A DNA stretch of 64,000 bases, from positions 3,344 through 67,343 of the forward strand of contig JADFQE010000001.1 in assembly GCA_022561985.1 (NCBI GenBank), read 5' to 3'. Under the pieces are notes generated by a model. That model was not told where the DNA came from and made no database searches. It saw only the letters and a program-made list of their open reading frames with translations. This DNA comes from Chloroflexota bacterium (GTDB lineage Bacteria; Chloroflexota; Dehalococcoidia; Lucifugimonadales; Australimonadaceae). The position numbers and the translations under genes were made by a program. Each line of letters begins with the position of its first letter. Positions within the stretch are counted from its first letter, which is position 1. Positions 981-56,003 of this stretch are shown in pieces.

Positions 981-2021
981 TTGGTCTTCCCAATGGCCTC
1001 CATCAATGCTACCGCTGACGCGGCAGCCGTTCAAACGCCCCCTGTCGTCGCGGACCTCACGGCCGTGTTCGCGGCGCTGGAGGACGGAGAACTGCTCGCC
1101 GCACTCGCTGGCCCCCGCCGTCGCGGCCCCAAGGGGCATCCGCTCCGGGCGCTGTGGCGGTGCTTCGTCGCCAAGCACCGTCTCGGTCTGCACTCGACCG
1201 ACGCGATGATTCGGGCGCTCCACGACAATCCCTATCTGGCCGCCGTCTGCGGCATCGACTCGCCCGAGGCCATCCCGCACAAGAGCACGTTCAGCCGGTT
1301 CTTCGCCAAGCTCGCGCGAGATCGGATGAGCTTGAGCATGGTCAAGGACGTGTCCCGCCGTCTGGTGCGCCACCACTACGAGACGCTGCCGGGCTTCGGA
1401 GAACGCGTGGCGCTGGACTCCACGACGCTCAAAGGATGGGCGAACGGGGGGAAGGGGAAGAAGGTGGACCCGGACGCTGGCTGGTCGGTCAAGCGGGGTA
1501 CTCAGGGAGTCAAGGAGTACGTGTTCGGCTACAAGCTCCACCTACTCGTGGACTGCGAGTACGAACTGCCCATCGCGGCCCACGTCTCCGCTGGGAACGT
1601 CAACGATTCCGTGCGTGCCTCCAATGTGCTGTCCGAGGCGCGGGTCGCCGCGCCGGGCTTCCACCCGCGCGCGCTCATGGCGGACGCGGGATATTCCGGA
1701 GCCGCGTTCCAGGTGCTGCTCACACGCCAGTACGACATCCGCCGCCCGGTGATCGACATCAACAAATCCCACCGGCGCCTGCTGGAGCGCCTAGAAGGCT
1801 GGTACGGCTCGCCGGAGTGGAAGGCGCTGTACTCGCAGCGCCAGGCTGTCGAGCGGGCGTTCTCACGGCTCAAGGGCCAGCGGTCGCTGAATCACATCAC
1901 CGTGCGGCGCAGGCGCAAGGTCACGGTACACTGCTACCTGTCGCTGATCGCAATGCAGGCAGGCGCAACCCGAATCGGTGCCAATCTTGCGGGGGCCATG
2001 GTACACTCCGTCGAGGCTTGA
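981..2021 (+). mobile_element. IS4/IS5-superfamily insertion sequence, DDE transposase ORF (element ends not resolved)
   Basis: 346-aa ORF. The N-terminal block HPLRALWRCFVAKHRLGLHSTDAMIRAL resembles the transposase DUF772 domain. DDE_Tnp_1-like blocks are present: VALDSTTL, LMADAGYSG, YSQRQAVERAFSRLK. TTG at 981, alternative ATG at 993. I could not find convincing terminal inverted repeats. Confidence 0.8.
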
Positions 2022-49644: not shown

Positions 49645-51675
49645 TTGGATCAGTTCACTGGCCCGAAGATACGCAATGTCGTTCTGCTCTCCCACTCAGG
49701 GGCGGGTAAAACGTCGCTCGCCGAGGCGATGCTGTTCGCCTCGAAGGGTATCAGCAGGCTCGGGAGCGTCGGCGACGGCAACACCGTTTCCGATTTCGAC
49801 CCCGAGGAGCAGCGGCGGGAGACCAGCCTCCAGCTCGCGGTCATCCCCTGCGTGTGGAAGGGAACGAAGGTCAACCTCCTCGATACTCCCGGCTACGCTG
49901 ATTTTATCGGCGAGACGGTTTCCGCGCTGCGGGCGGCCGATGCGGCGGTGGTCGTGGTCTCCGCGGCCAGCGGCGTGGAGGTCGGGACGGAGCTTGTCTG
50001 GGAGCGGGTGCGCGAGGCCGGCCTGCCCGTCATCGTGTTCGTGAGCAAGATGGACCGGGAGCACGCCGACTTCGCCGCGGCGCTCGCCCAGATCCGGGCG
50101 AAGCTCGGGAACCGGTGCGCCGCGGTCAACCTCCCCATCGGCGCCGAGGCGTCCTTCAGCGGCGTCGCCGACCTCGTCGCCGGCGACGTTCCGGCGGACG
50201 CACAAGCCGACGCCGGCGCGGCCCGCGACCAGCTCGCCGAGGCGGTGGCCGAGACCGACGACGACCTGACGCTGAAGTTCCTGGAGGAGGAGCGCCTCAG
50301 CGCCGAGGAGATCGCCTCCGGCCTGCGTGCCGGCGTGCGCACCGGCGCCGTGGTCCCCGTGCTCACGGGGTCGTCCATGAACGGCGCGGGCATCGGGGAG
50401 CTGCTCGATGCCATCGTCGATTATCTGCCGGCGCCGACCGACGCTCCGCCGGTCAAGGCGGAGAAGGGCGGCACGGAGGTCGAGCTCACCGCCGACCCGG
50501 CGGGCCCGCTCGCGGCCTTCGTGTTCAAGACCTCGGCCGACCCCTTCGTCGGCAAGCTGTCCTACATCCGCGTCGTGAGCGGCACCCTCGCCTCCAACAG
50601 CGAGGTGTGGGACTCGAAGACGTCGGAGGCCGAGCGCGTGAGCCAGGTCTTCGTCTCCATCGGGAAGCACCAGGAGAACGTGCCGAGCCTCGTGGCTGGA
50701 GACATCGGGAGCGTGGCCAAGCTCTCCCATGCGGTCACCGGCAGCACGCTCACCACCAAGGACGCGGCGATCGCGCTGCCGCCCGTCGAGTTCCCGCCCG
50801 CCGTCTACAACGTGGCGGTCCATCCCAAGTCCAAGGCGGACCACGACAAGCTGTCGGTGTCGCTGGCCCGGCTCATCGAGGAGGACCCGTCGCTGCACCT
50901 CTCGCGGGACCCATCGACGGCCGAGACCATCGTGGCGGGCCTCGGCGACACGCACGTCGAGGTCATGGCCGAGCGGGCGAAGCGCAAGTTCGGCGTCGAG
51001 ATCGAGCTGGCGCCGCCGCGCGTGCCCTATCAGGAGACCGTCAGCAAGGTCACGAAGGCCGAGTACCGGCACAAGAAGCAGTCGGGCGGCCACGGCCAGT
51101 ACGGGCACGTCGTCCTCCGCCTGGAGCCCAACGGCCGCGGCGAAGGGTTCAGCTTCAAGAGCGAGGTGGTCGGCGGCACCGTGCCGCGCGAATACATCCC
51201 CGCGGTGGAGAAGGGCGTGCAGAAGAGGATGGGCGAGGGGGCGCTCGCCGGCTTCCCCATCGTGGACGTGAAGGTGGTGCTGATCGACGGCAGCTCGCAC
51301 GCCGTCGACTCGTCCGGGCAGAGCTTCGAGATCGCGGGGAGCATGGCCATGCGCCAGGGCGTCCTCGACGCCGCGCCGACCCTGCTTGAGCCGATCATGA
51401 AGGTGCACATCACCGCGCCCGAGCAGTTCGCCGGGGCCGTCGTCGGCGACCTCAACACACGCCGCTCCCACATCCAGGGCATGTCGCCGGAGGGCGGCAT
51501 CGCGTACATCGACGCGGAGATGCCGCGGTCCGAGGCGCAGCAGTACTCCACGCAGCTCCGTGCGCTCACGCAGGGCCGTGGTGTGCTCACGATGGAGTTC
51601 GGCCACTACGGCCAGGTGCCGCCGAACCTCGTGGAGCGCATCGTGCAGAGCACGCAGGAAGCCACGAAGGCCTAG
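49645..51675 (+). CDS. elongation factor G paralog (EF-G2-like translational GTPase)
   Basis: 676 aa. G1 SHSGAGKTS, G3 DTPGYADF, G4 SKMD. EF-G domains II to V are recognisable (e.g. KKQSGGHGQYGHV). Confidence 0.9.
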   Translation: MDQFTGPKIRNVVLLSHSGAGKTSLAEAMLFASKGISRLGSVGDGNTVSDFDPEEQRRETSLQLAVIPCVWKGTKVNLLDTPGYADFIGETVSALRAADAAVVVVSAASGVEVGTELVWERVREAGLPVIVFVSKMDREHADFAAALAQIRAKLGNRCAAVNLPIGAEASFSGVADLVAGDVPADAQADAGAARDQLAEAVAETDDDLTLKFLEEERLSAEEIASGLRAGVRTGAVVPVLTGSSMNGAGIGELLDAIVDYLPAPTDAPPVKAEKGGTEVELTADPAGPLAAFVFKTSADPFVGKLSYIRVVSGTLASNSEVWDSKTSEAERVSQVFVSIGKHQENVPSLVAGDIGSVAKLSHAVTGSTLTTKDAAIALPPVEFPPAVYNVAVHPKSKADHDKLSVSLARLIEEDPSLHLSRDPSTAETIVAGLGDTHVEVMAERAKRKFGVEIELAPPRVPYQETVSKVTKAEYRHKKQSGGHGQYGHVVLRLEPNGRGEGFSFKSEVVGGTVPREYIPAVEKGVQKRMGEGALAGFPIVDVKVVLIDGSSHAVDSSGQSFEIAGSMAMRQGVLDAAPTLLEPIMKVHITAPEQFAGAVVGDLNTRRSHIQGMSPEGGIAYIDAEMPRSEAQQYSTQLRALTQGRGVLTMEFGHYGQVPPNLVERIVQSTQEATKA

Positions 51676-51707
51676 ACGTCGCCCCGCGCGTATCGCCGAG
51701 GCACAGC

Positions 51708-51736
51708 GGAAGGGGCGCGACTATCGCGCCCCTTCC
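51708..51736. terminator. bidirectional intrinsic-terminator hairpin
   Basis: Perfect 13-bp stem GGAAGGGGCGCGA/TCGCGCCCCTTCC with a 3-nt loop, followed by GTTGCGTTCTT. It lies between convergent genes. Confidence 0.7.
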
Positions 51737-51769
51737 GTTGCGTTCTTGGGCGTTGAGCCGGTGTCCGGC

Positions 51770-52216
51770 CTAGTTGCCGGTGCGGGACCAGAGGGTGTGG
51801 TAGGGGCCCTGACCCTGGATCATCGCCACCAGGGAGCGCCGCTCCCACTGGCGGAGCTCGCCGAGCGCGCCGGCGCACTGCTCCTCCGTGCCCTCGAACC
51901 CGGATGCGTTCATCCGGCGCTCGAGCAGCTCCCACGCGCGGGAGGCGGAGAAGGCCTCGACGGACCCGGTCCACGGGATGACGGAGAGCTCGCGTGCGCG
52001 TGGCAGGTCCGGGCGGGCGCGGTTCACGTGCCGGAGCCTGCGCTCGCCGGAGCCCAGCGGCGCCGAGACGGCGATACGAGGCGGATCGTCGGGCGCCGAC
52101 CGGCTGTCGTAGACGAGACACTGGTCGATGATGGGCAGGATCACGCAGACGACCTCGGCCGTCTCCGCGCCATCGAGGGCTTCCGTCATCTCGCGGTCGT
52201 AGTCGTGCTCAGCCAT
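51770..52216 (-). CDS. hypothetical protein (148 aa)
   Basis: ATG 52216 has AGGAGG 8 nt upstream. Protein-like composition (MAEHDYDREMTEALDG...). No family recognised. Confidence 0.6.
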   Translation of the reverse strand: MAEHDYDREMTEALDGAETAEVVCVILPIIDQCLVYDSRSAPDDPPRIAVSAPLGSGERRLRHVNRARPDLPRARELSVIPWTGSVEAFSASRAWELLERRMNASGFEGTEEQCAGALGELRQWERRSLVAMIQGQGPYHTLWSRTGN

Positions 52217-52243
52217 GACGCAGCACCTCCTGCCCATCTAGTC

Positions 52244-52340
52244 TAGCAGTTCATGCCTCTCGCGGGAGCGCGAAGCTCCTCCGGGAAGCTTCACCTTGGC
52301 TCCACGTCGGAGGAGTAGTGGTGTGGCATGGCTGGTCATC
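52244..52340. repeat. decayed copy of the etfA 3' region (copy A)
   Basis: TAGCAGTTCATGCCTCTCGCG is identical to 53420-53440. The following ~90 nt align by eye with 53441-53530 and, more weakly, with etfA codons around DWAKVLPAF. Confidence 0.6.
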
Positions 52341-52639
52341 GCCAGGTGCGGGCAGTGGGATCGTCGGCCCCGACGTCAGCGGCGGCCCGATCGCTCATCG
52401 CCCGATAGAGCCGCCGTGGTGCCGACCGCGGGTGTACTCGGGCTGGCGGAGCTACGCAACAGGACCGTCTACGTTGGCGCATTGCCGAACAGGCGCGGTG
52501 TTCGGGTGTACGCGCAACCCCCGCCATTCATGACGGAACGTGAGCTTGTGAACCACTTGCGGTTACGCTATCGTGCACTGGCTGCGGCTGCCGGACGGCA
52601 TCGCGCATGTGCCCCGTTCACTGGTGTGAAGAGTCCATC

Positions 52640-53422
52640 ATGACAGTGACGCCCTCCGACGCGCTCAACACGGCCCTCTACAAGCTAACGGGCTACCGCC
52701 TCACACAGGCTGCCCCGCACGCGCTGACTGACACCGGTGTTGGCGTGCCGTGGCTGCGGTCCTACCTGTACCTGGCAGACCTCTTGGACGGGGCTCCGGA
52801 TGGCGGCGCCATCGTGGAGTGTGGCGTTGCCACCGGCGGCACCCTGGCGATGCTTGTCGATCTGAGCCAACTTCGTCGGGTTGCCATGGGACGCGATGGG
52901 AACGTCTACGGGTTCGACTCTTGGGCTGGCCACATGCCCTCACCAACAGTCGCCGACTTCGACGGGTCGGGGGACAACAAGGCTTCCTGGTACGAGCCGC
53001 CGAAGGGCGGCAAAGAAGCCGTGCTGGCGAACCTAAAGAACTGGGGCTACGAGTCTCGGCATGTGACTCTCGTGCAAGGCTGGTTCGAGGACACGATGGA
53101 CCAGCTCCCCGACCGCATCTCGTTCCTGCACATCGACGCTGACCTCTACGAGAGCTACCGCACGGTGCTCCGAGCGGCAACGCCCAAGCTTGTCCCTGGC
53201 GCGATCATTGCACTGGATGAGTACGAGCGCCCAAAGGAATGGCCAGGGGCGCGCCGCGCCGTTGACGAATGGCTGGCCGAGAACCCAGAGGGGTACGAGA
53301 TCACACAGCACCCCCACGGCAAGTTCTACATCACATGCGGGCGCGAGTTGGTACCCGGCGATGTCCCTGAGGATGCCAGCGAACGGGCGGGGCTAACCCG
53401 GCTGCCCAGTGGAGCCGGATAG
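52640..53422 (+). CDS. TylF/MycF-type class I SAM-dependent O-methyltransferase
   Basis: GAIVECGVATGG (SAM motif I), SFLHIDADLYESY and ALDEY are TylF-family blocks. The start is ATG 52640 or 52607. The last 9 codons are antisense to a pseudo-etfA tail. Confidence 0.7.
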   Translation: MTVTPSDALNTALYKLTGYRLTQAAPHALTDTGVGVPWLRSYLYLADLLDGAPDGGAIVECGVATGGTLAMLVDLSQLRRVAMGRDGNVYGFDSWAGHMPSPTVADFDGSGDNKASWYEPPKGGKEAVLANLKNWGYESRHVTLVQGWFEDTMDQLPDRISFLHIDADLYESYRTVLRAATPKLVPGAIIALDEYERPKEWPGARRAVDEWLAENPEGYEITQHPHGKFYITCGRELVPGDVPEDASERAGLTRLPSGAG

Positions 53423-53530
53423 CAGTTCATGCCTCTCGCGTGAGCACCAAGGTCCACTCGCAGGCTCCATGTTGAGCGCTACGTCGGGGGAAGCGATATG
53501 GCTTGGTCACAGCCATTGCCCAGGGCGGGC
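53393..53530. repeat. decayed copy of the etfA 3' end (copy B)
   Basis: 53393-53432 is 35/40 identical to 54214-54253 (the etfA stop plus the last 12 codons). On the minus strand it still reads HELLSGSTGQPG*. Confidence 0.75.
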
Positions 53531-53564
53531 AGGACGCTGGGCCAGCCTAGTGAGATCGCGAGGG

Positions 53565-53933
53565 TCACGCTCTTAAAACCACGAGGGACGTGAACATCCT
53601 CTGCGCGGCGATGACCGTGACCAGCCACCCGGTGAAGGCGACTGTCTCGAGTAGGGAGCCGTAGAGCACAACGGTCGGGATCCACTCCCACGGCGATGCC
53701 CCATACGCTTGTGCTGCGGCAGCACTCAGAGCGAGCAGGGAGCAGGACGCGGAGCCTATGACCACCACAGCCAGCACGCGGGCCGAGCCGTAATACGCTG
53801 CCTGTCCCTCCGGCCCCCGAGCCTGGCGCAACCTGTACCCCGCTATGACCAGCCCGAGCACCACCATGAGAAGGGCGGTCAACGCGAGGGAGACCGTGAG
53901 CAGGTCAGCAGGTCGAGTTGCCAGCTCCTTCAT
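53565..53933 (-). CDS. hypothetical small membrane protein (about 3 TM)
   Basis: 122 aa from MKELATRPADLL, with three hydrophobic helices. The track ORF is longer (to 54089), but its N-terminus looks non-coding. Confidence 0.45.
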   Translation of the reverse strand: MKELATRPADLLTVSLALTALLMVVLGLVIAGYRLRQARGPEGQAAYYGSARVLAVVVIGSASCSLLALSAAAAQAYGASPWEWIPTVVLYGSLLETVAFTGWLVTVIAAQRMFTSLVVLRA

Positions 53934-54213
53934 CGCTTGAGCCCAGCTCGATAGCGTGATCACACATCTCCTGTCGCGGAACTCGCCCTTGAAACAGCCA
54001 GTCTCGGCCGGCGTGCGCAGTGGATGAGAACCCCACCATCGACCTATCGACCGCCGCAGTTGGCCTCCGACGCGCAGCGCTACCGCCACGGCACGTTAGT
54101 GCCTCCGCGGCGTAGTCGCTATGTACGTTCGTACGACGTGGCGGGTACTTCGCACACCGGGTTTCGCAAGACCCGTGGGGGCAGGCGATGGGCGTTGTGG
54201 TGCGGGGGTGGAG

Positions 54214-55218
54214 CTAGCCGGGCTGCCGAGTGGAGCCGGAGAGCAGCTCATGCAACTGCTCGGTGAACGCGGGCAGCACCTTGGCCCAGTCGCCGATGAC
54301 GCCGAAGCGGGCGTCCTTGAAGATGTTGGCGCCCGCGTCCTTGTTGATCGCAACGATCGCCTTGGCGTTGGCGCAGCCCGCCATGTGCTGGCTGGCGCCC
54401 GAGATGCCGACGGCGATGTACAGCTCCGGCGTGACCGTCTTGCCCGTCAACCCCACCTGGTAGCTCGTCGGCACCCACCCGGCGTCGCAGGCGGCGCGGG
54501 AGGCGCCCACGGCGCCGCCCAGCAGCGTGGCGAGCTCCGCGAGCTGCTCGAAGGGCTCGGGGCCGCCGAGGCCCCTGCCCCCGCTCACGATCACGCGCGC
54601 GTCCTCCAGCCGCAGGCCGCTCGCCGCCTGCTCGACGCGCTCGATCGACCGCGTCCGCACGGTCGCCTCGTCGATGGCCGCATCGACCGCGACGACCTCG
54701 CCGGTGCGCGTCGCGTCGGCCTCCAGCGCGTCGACGGTGCCGGGGCGGAGCGACGCCACCGCCGGCGTGCCGAGGCAGCGCACCGTCGCATCGGCGTTCC
54801 CGCCGTAGGTGGGCCGCGTCGCGAGCAGGCGGCCGTCGCCGTCCAGGGCAAGTGCCGTGCAGTCCGACGCGAGCGCCGTGCCCAGGCGGAAGGCCAGCCG
54901 GGGCATGACGTCGCGGCCGAGGAGCGTCTTCGCGCCGAGGACGATGCGCGGCCCGGCCGCTGCGACGGCGGCCGCTGCCGCCGCGACGACCGCATCGGGC
55001 GCGGCGTCGGCGAGCAACGCGCTCTCGATCGCGTAGACGGCGTCGGCGCCTGACGCGATGGCGGTCTGGGCGGCGTTGCCCACGCTCTCGCCCGCGAGCA
55101 TCACGCCGACCGGCCCGCCGCCCAGGGCGCGCGCGGCCGCGATGGCTTCGAGCGTGGCCGGCGCCGGAGCGCCGTCCACCAGCTCGCCGATCACGAGGAT
55201 GGAGGTGGGGTCGGGCAT
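54214..55218 (-). CDS. etfA: electron transfer flavoprotein alpha subunit
   Basis: 334 aa from MPDPTSILVIGE. Motifs GGRGLG, ELYIAVGISGASQHMAG and IVAINKDAGANIF. Confidence 0.9.
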   Translation of the reverse strand: MPDPTSILVIGELVDGAPAPATLEAIAAARALGGGPVGVMLAGESVGNAAQTAIASGADAVYAIESALLADAAPDAVVAAAAAAVAAAGPRIVLGAKTLLGRDVMPRLAFRLGTALASDCTALALDGDGRLLATRPTYGGNADATVRCLGTPAVASLRPGTVDALEADATRTGEVVAVDAAIDEATVRTRSIERVEQAASGLRLEDARVIVSGGRGLGGPEPFEQLAELATLLGGAVGASRAACDAGWVPTSYQVGLTGKTVTPELYIAVGISGASQHMAGCANAKAIVAINKDAGANIFKDARFGVIGDWAKVLPAFTEQLHELLSGSTRQPG

Positions 55219-55223
55219 CGCCA

Positions 55224-56003
55224 CTACACCAGATGCTCTTCGCGGAGCCGCAGCGCCAGCTTGCGCCCTGCGTCCGCGTCGTCGTCGCCGGTGATCATCT
55301 CGGTCTCCACGCGCCGCTCCGGCGCCGCGAGCGACACCAGCTCGAAGGCTGGCGCCACCTCCGTGGGCTCGATGCCGAGGTCCGCGGCCGACCACACCGC
55401 CGGCTGGATGCGCCGCGCCCCCATGATGCCGCGCATGTTCGGATACCGCGGTGCGCCCAGCTCGTTCGAGACCGTCACCACGGCCGGGAGGGCAGCCTCC
55501 ACGAGCTCGTGGCCGTCGGGGAGCACGCGCTGGACGCGCACGGTCGTGCCGTCGACCTCCACGTGCTTGGCGATGGTGGCGATGGGCCAGCCGAGCGCCT
55601 CCGCGATCCCCGCGGGGACCTGGGCGTTGTCCCAGTCGCTCGCCTGGCGCCCCGCGAGCACGAGGTCGACGTCGCCGAGCTTGCGGATGGCCGCGACCAG
55701 CGCCGCGACCGTCAGCATCGGGTCGATCACGTTCTCGAAGGCGGGGTCCTGGAGCAGCACGAGGTCGTCCGCGCCCATGGCGAGCGGCTTCTTGATGACG
55801 TCGAGCGCGAAGTCGGTGCCGTAGGACAGCACGGTGACGTGCGTGCCGTCGACGGCCTCCTTGATGCGCAGCGCGGCCTCGACGGCCTGCTCGTCGAAGC
55901 CGTTGATGACGGGCGCCATGTTGGATGCGGCGGCCACCCGGTCGTCCTCGATCCGGAATGCGGACAGCGGTGTCTCGGGATCGAGCACCTGCTTGGCCGT
56001 CAC
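55224..56003 (-). CDS. etfB: electron transfer flavoprotein beta subunit
   Basis: Motifs VINGFDEQAVEAALRIKE and DLVLAGRQASDWDNAQV. The first canonical start (GTG 56003) removes the conserved first beta-strand HIVV. ATC 56021 has GAGG 7 nt upstream (see findings). Confidence 0.9.
   Translation of the reverse strand: MTAKQVLDPETPLSAFRIEDDRVAAASNMAPVINGFDEQAVEAALRIKEAVDGTHVTVLSYGTDFALDVIKKPLAMGADDLVLLQDPAFENVIDPMLTVAALVAAIRKLGDVDLVLAGRQASDWDNAQVPAGIAEALGWPIATIAKHVEVDGTTVRVQRVLPDGHELVEAALPAVVTVSNELGAPRYPNMRGIMGARRIQPAVWSAADLGIEPTEVAPAFELVSLAAPERRVETEMITGDDDADAGRKLALRLREEHLV

Follow-up and report, generated by a model that had tools for sequence, protein, structure and literature searches.

Two single-gene modules at the 3' end of etfA in uncultivated soil Chloroflexota, probably added in series by site-specific recombination

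How does the gene of a core redox protein, EtfA, come to end in codons that its closest homologues do not possess, with two unrelated genes lodged between it and its usual neighbor? This question is raised by a window of 64,000 nucleotides (nt) from contig JADFQE010000001.1 of a Chloroflexota bacterium (all positions are counted from the first letter of the window), in which 1,997 bp are inserted at the 3' end of etfA, a gene that reads on the minus strand. An initial inspection of this DNA, hereafter the sequence-only reading, described three nested copies of the etfA 3' end that delimit two single-gene insertions, attributed them to serial integration and proposed a comparison with relatives for empty sites and alternative cargo. 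Both empty sites and cargo polymorphism have been found: the locus occurs among relatives with no module, with one and with two, and the strain junctions establish two independent single-gene modules flanked by att-like direct repeats. These are probably non-autonomous modules resembling cis-mobilizable elements (CIMEs), added serially by site-specific recombination at an attachment site located in the last codons of etfA.

Empty sites are present in three relatives (L002, L023 and L024) that are ~88-90% identical to the window. L002, a Chloroflexota metagenome-assembled genome with ~88% nucleotide identity, aligns colinearly with the window to the left and right of 52256-54241, which it lacks; its etfA ends in ...GAGCAGCTA CATGAACTGCT AGAC TAG, and the gene of a conserved 148-amino-acid (148-aa) protein starts 19 nt later. 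In the window, the etfA body up to the recombination core (54254..55218, minus strand; Pfam ETF and ETF_alpha) is colinear with all three relatives down to 54242, and colinearity resumes at 52255 (L002, L024) or 52252 (L023) and extends down to 51770, that is, through the 148-aa gene (51770..52216, minus strand), which in the empty-site relatives starts 18-20 nt past the etfA stop. The displaced original etfA end, GAC TAG (Asp and stop; 52238..52243, minus strand), is identical to the etfA end in L002, L023 and L024. The state with one module is represented by nine contigs (L011-L014 and L017-L021; one of them is NCBI assembly GCA_022560295.1) that are 98-99.4% identical to the window and carry only the module encoding a small hydrophobic protein with about three transmembrane segments (3-TM); in 9/9 of these contigs the order is etfA, the left module end (tail A), the 3-TM gene, the complete right-end arm X_B, CATGAACTGCT, AGACTAG and the 148-aa gene. 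The other module carries a TylF-type O-methyltransferase gene. Contig L016 spans etfA, the 3-TM module and the junction between the two modules (site B) and runs into the methyltransferase gene, and contigs L001, L008 and L009 cover the methyltransferase module together with its flanks at sites B and C. Because the window and these four independent contigs show junctions that exist only when two modules are present, the two-module structure is not an assembly artefact. Contigs in the two-module (L008) and one-module (L018) states were obtained from one and the same sample, ERZ23499094.

In the orientation of etfA, each module consists of a tail of ~35 nt, one cargo gene, an arm (X) of ~100 nt and a core of 11-13 nt, the units measuring 821 nt (3-TM module, module 2) and 1,176 nt (methyltransferase module, module 1). 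Core copy 1 (54241..54253; minus strand GCATGAGCTGCTC, coding H-E-L-L) forms the attL-type junction, at which colinearity with the empty sites breaks. The tail of module 2 (54206..54240, minus strand), 85% identical to 53385-53419, encodes the new EtfA C-terminus SGSTRQPG with its stop in 54214-54240, and the remaining 8 nt are conserved; in effect, the last codon of etfA (D) is replaced by an 8-codon tail and a stop. The right-end arm of module 2, X_B (53433..53533, minus strand), is ~75% identical to 52257-52356 and in one-module strains is joined directly to the core and GACTAG. Core copy 2 (53420..53432, minus strand) is a hybrid junction, with the right end of module 2 on one side and the left end of module 1 on the other. 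The tail of module 1 (53385..53419, minus strand) matches that of module 2 and does not terminate etfA any more; on its antisense strand it encodes the end of the methyltransferase, which reaches its TAG stop (53420-53422) within core copy 2. The right-end arm of module 1, X_C (52257..52356, minus strand; ~75% identical to X_B), leads to core copy 3 (52244..52256, minus strand), the attR-type junction. All three cores and both types of ends are in direct orientation. The empty site and the three junctions have only CATGARCTGCT (+/- 1 nt) in common, a sequence that contains the HELL codons and the sixth base of which (A or G) differs among strains.

Is the repeated sequence beyond this core derived from etfA? 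Copies A (54214-54253) and B (53393-53432) are indeed identical at 35/40 positions, as first counted, and the match runs 8 nt further, past the stop codon, to 54206 and 53385 (41/48 identical, 85% over 48 nt; BLAST E 2.6e-11). On the minus strand the two copies read HELLSGSTRQPG and HELLSGSTGQPG, each followed by a stop, and four of the five differences between them are synonymous changes at the third codon position, again in agreement with the sequence-only reading. Its explanation of A and B as diverged etfA alleles is rejected: the best 120 EtfA homologues all (120/120) end in HELLx, i.e., HELL and one residue before the stop, and a phmmer search with the last 35 EtfA residues against 1.84 billion representative proteins produced no alignment that reaches the tail. 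On the strength of these two results, the 27-nt tail, which codes for SGST(R/G)QPG and a stop, is a sequence of the element rather than of etfA. The longest-reaching phmmer match, P0237, ends in the unrelated DHSKEVE. In this protein, a distant, AT-rich-looking EtfA, HELLD-HSKEVE represents a different, 6-residue extension beyond the point where EtfA normally stops, perhaps the trace of an unrelated insertion at the same position.

The repeat shared by sites B and C was treated in the same manner. The sequence TAGCAGTTCATGCCTCTCGCG is identical at 21/21 positions at 52244 (copy C) and 53420 (copy B), with no further copy in the window even when 3 mismatches are allowed (expected by chance, 0). 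This length of identity holds for the haplotype of the window strain, and only ~12-13 nt around the core are identical in L001, L008 and L016. Similarity between B and C extends over 89-113 nt at ~75% (BLAST E 2.6e-11), and formal alignment places it above background, with a local score of 45, a value not attained by any of 2,000 random genomic segments (17.4 +/- 2.8). The suggestion that this part of copy B consists of decayed etfA codons did not survive: alignment of X_B and X_C with the last 130 nt of etfA before the core gave a score of 22, compared to 17.5 +/- 3 for random genomic segments (p = 0.08 and 0.11), which is not above background in either shuffled or genomic null sets, and the best arm-etfA matches are not colinear. 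The ~100-nt B/C repeat is thus the other end of the elements and not a pseudo-etfA, and the supposed nested copies of the etfA 3' end, which share only CATGARCTGCT with the uninterrupted gene, resolve into module ends and a target core. The shared module ends are not gene-regulatory sequences because the cargo genes are unrelated and oppositely oriented. Both arms (53500-53525 and 52300-52320) have their best match in the same etfA segment, 54270-54295 (GACTGGGCCAAGGTGCTGCCCGC, coding DWAKVLPA), at differing distances from the core and with p ~0.1 each.

The distribution of the modules among strains bears on the order of their arrival. All strains with at least 96% identity to the window have the 3-TM module. 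Strains that are 98-99% identical vary in whether they carry the methyltransferase module, the boundary of which lies exactly at the core. Given that the 96%-identical L022 also carries the 3-TM module, this module appears to be the older insertion, and the methyltransferase module the younger, polymorphic one. The latter is located on the side that retains the original gene end, i.e., the attR side of the first module. In these metagenome consensus contigs, its presence or absence does not follow the haplotypes of flanking single-nucleotide polymorphisms (SNPs), and one- and two-module contigs share haplotypes. Divergence amounts to 15% between the tails, ~25% between the arms, ~1% among strains and ~12% from the empty-site relatives. 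With a divergence of 15-25% against ~1% among strains, the module ends separated long before their arrival, which rules out a local duplication and makes the modules separate members of an older family.

Some variation has accumulated within the ends themselves. In L018, the tail (~164-190, equivalent to window 54214-54240) reads SGSTRQTG and a stop, with 5/27 nt changed in a contig that is otherwise 98.5% identical, so that either the tail is a local hot spot or that of L018 was replaced from another copy of the element. Over the three tail variants, the variable sites number 4 at third, 2 at first and 0 at second positions of codons, a weak hint (p ~0.1) that the tails evolved while translated. 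Three haplotypes are apparent in the core-adjacent part of X_B (window 53433-53470 compared with L001, L008, L009, L016 and L014), and in L001, L008, L009 and L016, all in the two-module state, 9 nt of X_B (GGAGCTTCG) form a patch that matches X_C exactly, suggesting that gene conversion has taken place between the arms.

Such exchanges could be taken to mean that no site-specific enzyme was involved and that foreign DNA entered by homologous or homology-facilitated illegitimate recombination with the etfA end as anchor, the repeats being by-products and gain or loss proceeding by homologous exchange or by deletion between repeats. The X_C-like patches in X_B of two-module strains, the mosaic appearance of strain haplotypes and the 21-nt B-C identity in the window, which could support precise RecA-mediated deletion, are all compatible with this scenario. 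Nevertheless, we consider it improbable: two unrelated cargos stop at exactly one 11-13-nt core, and the same two kinds of ends, 15-25% diverged, occur on both, an architecture that illegitimate joins would not repeat. Arm X, moreover, is not homologous to etfA and accordingly offers no anchor for recombination.

It is the termination of two unrelated cargos at an identical core, with the same arrangement of ends, that argues for site-specific integration of separate elements. The ancestral site reads ...GAGCAGCTA-CATGAACTGCT-AGACTAG, with the next gene directly after it. Under this mechanism, arm, core and tail (~150 nt) would together represent the attP of an element family, and the exchange within the core would be, or would once have been, performed by a tyrosine or large serine recombinase whose gene lies elsewhere, either in the genome or on an autonomous relative since lost. 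The 3-TM module would have been inserted first, followed by the methyltransferase module at the attR side. The modules could have arisen by deletion from larger elements with an integrase, or be cassettes made for movement in trans, and a deletion would have removed whatever lay between the methyltransferase gene and the left end of its element. An imperfect palindrome in the attL junction (54235-54261, minus strand), GAGCAGT-TGCATGA-GCTGCTC, has a 7-7-7 layout resembling that of a simple recombinase site; only AGCAG...CTGCT of it is retained in the empty attB, and sites B and C are devoid of its left half.

Several observations weigh against this mechanism. Each module has a single open reading frame (ORF) with no recombinase domain in Pfam, NCBIfam or PADLOC, and a Pfam scan of the 41 further candidate ORFs of the window detected no recombinase either, extending an absence already noticed in the sequence-only reading. 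No circular or excised form was seen. Only two copies of each end, those of the two modules, underlie the family: viral contigs gave 0 matches in two scans, a scan of Joint Genome Institute (JGI) metagenomes gave one chance match inside an ATPase gene, phage and plasmid collections contained no member, and nhmmer profiles of arm and tail recovered only the known copies in the window and none in L002-L007, L010, L023 and L024. An autonomous, integrase-bearing relative was likewise not found in the viral, JGI, phage and plasmid searches. Finally, precise loss of the methyltransferase module could occur by RecA-dependent recombination within the 21-nt B-C identity, and the presence/absence polymorphism alone is, for that reason, no proof of a site-specific enzyme.

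Direct repeats flanking each module would also be left by insertions of transposons or miniature inverted-repeat transposable elements that duplicate an 11-13-nt target site. This origin is extremely improbable. There are no terminal inverted repeats, and none that pair the tail with the arm; both insertions occupy the identical site with the same orientation of ends; and the left end supplies EtfA with an in-frame tail and a stop. The sole transposase in the window, which is also the sole mobility gene found in it, is of the insertion sequence (IS) DDE type (DDE_Tnp_1 and DUF772; 981-2021, plus strand) and lies 50 kb from the etfA locus. Modules of the Xer/dif type (pdif modules and integrative mobile elements exploiting Xer, IMEX), which have 28-nt XerC/XerD sites (11-6-11) as their boundaries, alternating in orientation in the case of pdif modules, were rejected as well, given that the cores and ends are all in direct orientation and that no dif-like 11-6-11 site was recognized by inspection.

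Among the known systems, tandem accretion of CIMEs at the 3' end of a protein gene comes closest to the modules; its model case is Streptococcus thermophilus, where the fda gene is the target of elements related to ICESt1 and ICESt3. As in these CIMEs, attL- and attR-type direct repeats flank tandem elements that possess no integration or transfer genes, a newer element lies beside the original end of the target gene, and relatives have empty sites. At etfA, the core recurs at 54241-54253, 53420-53432 and 52244-52256 with breakpoints that match the empty sites, unoccupied attB sites are found in L002, L023 and L024, and the single ORF of each module is not a recombinase, leaving no genes for integration, excision or transfer. 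According to the accretion model, defined together with CIMEs in PMC5704250, which cites Pavlovic 2004 and Bellanger 2011, a newer element is acquired at the att site retaining the original target-gene end, and the attR-side position of the methyltransferase module is as this model predicts. The etfA modules differ from these CIMEs in being ~ten times smaller, with a single gene each, in having no known related integrative and conjugative or integrative and mobilizable element (ICE/IME) or integrase, and in their target, the last codons of etfA, and host, uncultivated soil Chloroflexota, both of which are new. Descent of the modules from a larger element is what we infer, the sole hint being the truncated 3' end of the methyltransferase gene described below.

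Islands in Dehalococcoides have been described in tandem at the 3' end of ssrA, the transfer-messenger RNA (tmRNA) gene, with a 20-bp repeat (McMurdie et al. 2011, PMC3146451); they are many kb in size and associated with the CcrB-like serine recombinase DsiB, and 15 of them, which lack an integration module, were proposed to be CIMEs (PMC3146451). The etfA modules belong to the same phylum and resemble these islands in their tandem arrangement at the 3' end of an essential gene present in single copy, in the combination of a short target repeat with an adjacent conserved element motif that does not align with the target, and in the absence of an integration module, common to many of the islands. 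The tmRNA target, the many-kb size and DsiB set the islands apart, none of these being found at etfA.

In the icd gene of Escherichia coli, phage 21 and e14, which have their own integrase, replace ~50 icd codons with homologous ones. Similarly to these prophages, the element at etfA completes the interrupted frame, leaving the original end at the far junction; the difference is that one codon is replaced by an unrelated 8-codon tail, with no integrase. Homologous replacement of the icd type was therefore rejected, as the displaced end is D and a stop, the supplied end is SGSTRQPG and a stop, and the tail is absent from EtfA homologues.

The composition and history of the cargo help in judging whether the modules are decayed islands. 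The inserted segment has a GC content of 63-66%, compared to 70-78% in the surroundings, in line with its initial description as visibly more A/T-rich, and GC at third codon positions (GC3) is 0.77 in both cargo genes vs 0.92-0.96 in host genes, i.e., the composition of the cargo genes is foreign. The two genes are unrelated and run in opposite directions. That of module 1 (52640..53422, plus strand) belongs, as had been recognized, to the TylF-type O-methyltransferases (Pfam PF05711, 5e-20), with last codons antisense to the tail; the gene runs into the module 1 tail and stops in the core. Its nearest relative outside the locus, in contig L007, has 82.5% nucleotide identity over 52663-53343 only and sits among different neighbors, between an Xre-type regulator and an ATP sulfurylase gene. 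Compared with this homologue, the window gene is without its native last ~13 codons and continues through non-homologous DNA and the tail to the TAG in the core. The loss of the native 3' end fits a deletion between the left end of the element and the gene; such a truncation is what this deletion would leave, and it favors a decayed, CIME-like island over a purpose-built cassette. Between the two genes there are 43 synonymous and 45 non-synonymous codon changes, and the estimated dN/dS ratio of roughly 0.35 would indicate purifying selection. Approximately 220 nt downstream of the L007 homologue, at 1687-1804 of that contig, is a tRNA-Sec-like sequence ending in GGTTCGACTCCCACGCACTCCCGCCA (Rfam 24.7 bits, below the gathering score; ARAGORN calls nothing), which could mark another island context.

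The 132-aa product of the module 2 cargo gene (53565..53963, minus strand) is a hydrophobic ORFan without a match in Pfam, NCBIfam or PADLOC and with homologues only in its own 90%-identity cluster. Thus, a small hydrophobic ORF is present as the sequence-only reading stated, its ~3 membrane segments being judged by eye, without a predictor. The same reading considered a 37-aa ORF upstream of the methyltransferase gene (52530..52643); the open frame exists, within a 115-aa open frame at 52296-52643, but the composition of the latter is not coding-like (GC by codon position 0.70/0.62/0.63), and the L007 homologue shares nothing upstream of 52663. Annotation of the cargo for defense systems and against NCBIfam yielded no matches.

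A dedicated cassette system would provide a different framework for the same data: single-gene modules with a ~150-nt site, captured at a fixed chromosomal position by a recombinase acting in trans, comparable to integrons and unconnected with decayed islands. Integron gene cassettes and clusters of attC sites lacking integron-integrases (CALIN) are reportedly the subject of work by Cury et al. in 2016. CALIN arrays resemble the etfA modules in consisting of ~1-kb single-gene units with recombination sites of ~100-150 nt, gathered at one locus with no integrase beside them; the etfA modules are distinguished by the lack of an attC hairpin and of R''/R' boxes, by oppositely oriented cargo that keeps its own upstream regions and by the anchoring of the array in a coding sequence. 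In favor of a cassette system are the modest lengths of 821 and 1,176 nt with one intact ORF each, the conservation of both ends despite unrelated cargo, and the independence of methyltransferase-module presence from flanking SNP haplotypes, although the SNP matrix was built on metagenome consensus contigs. However, only two cassettes are known and the recombinase was not found; single-strand DNA folds of site B (z-scores -0.3 and -0.9) reveal no attC-type hairpin, and a search of the boundaries for R boxes found no RYYYAAC...GTTRRRY pair, which together rule out an integron attC; the oppositely oriented cargo genes each bring 215-280 nt of their own upstream DNA; and the truncated native 3' end of the methyltransferase looks like deletion scarring. 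A complete integron was rejected too, there being no tyrosine recombinase (IntI) among the 41 ORFs scanned outside the modules. Overall, the cassette explanation is unlikely, and we give limited credence to the notion that soil Chloroflexota possess a cassette-capture system with a non-attC site (arm, core and tail) that inserts and removes cassettes in trans in the etfA stop region, each cassette rewriting the EtfA C-terminus.

Growth of genomic islands by accretion is known, and serial insertion at etfA presents it in a small, recombinase-less form. What sets the etfA modules apart from the known systems is their very small, single-gene size, a target that codes for a protein, the exchange of its end for 8 non-homologous codons and the lack of a known autonomous relative. 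Within an uncultivated Chloroflexota lineage, the locus provides a natural series of alleles that carry zero, one or two modules and have junctions exact to the base pair. It indicates that accretion can work with units as small as one gene, that integration of an element can leave a core redox protein with a permanently rewritten C-terminus and that insertion parts etfA from a gene that normally follows within 20 nt. If a recombinase acting in trans exists, the modules would exemplify a second, non-integron route to single-gene cassette capture; if there is none, they are a fossil of CIME-type decay, well documented and useful for testing island-detection tools that depend on finding an integrase.

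With the new tail included, the EtfA ORF occupies 54214-55218 and that of EtfB 55224-56003, both on the minus strand; a look-up of the exact EtfA sequence returned no record. No structured RNA was found in 51600-54400 (0 Rfam matches), and no promoter or terminator consensus was found at the locus. The 148-aa gene has no family match in Pfam, NCBIfam or PADLOC. Because 18-20 nt separate it from the etfA stop in the empty-site relatives, it is probably co-transcribed with etfBA there, and the insertions have put 0.8-2 kb, including the antisense methyltransferase gene, between etfA and this gene. The 148-aa gene keeps its own GGAGG ribosome-binding sequence (regions compared: 51770-52216 and 52217-52243 of the window and 3547-3571 of L002).

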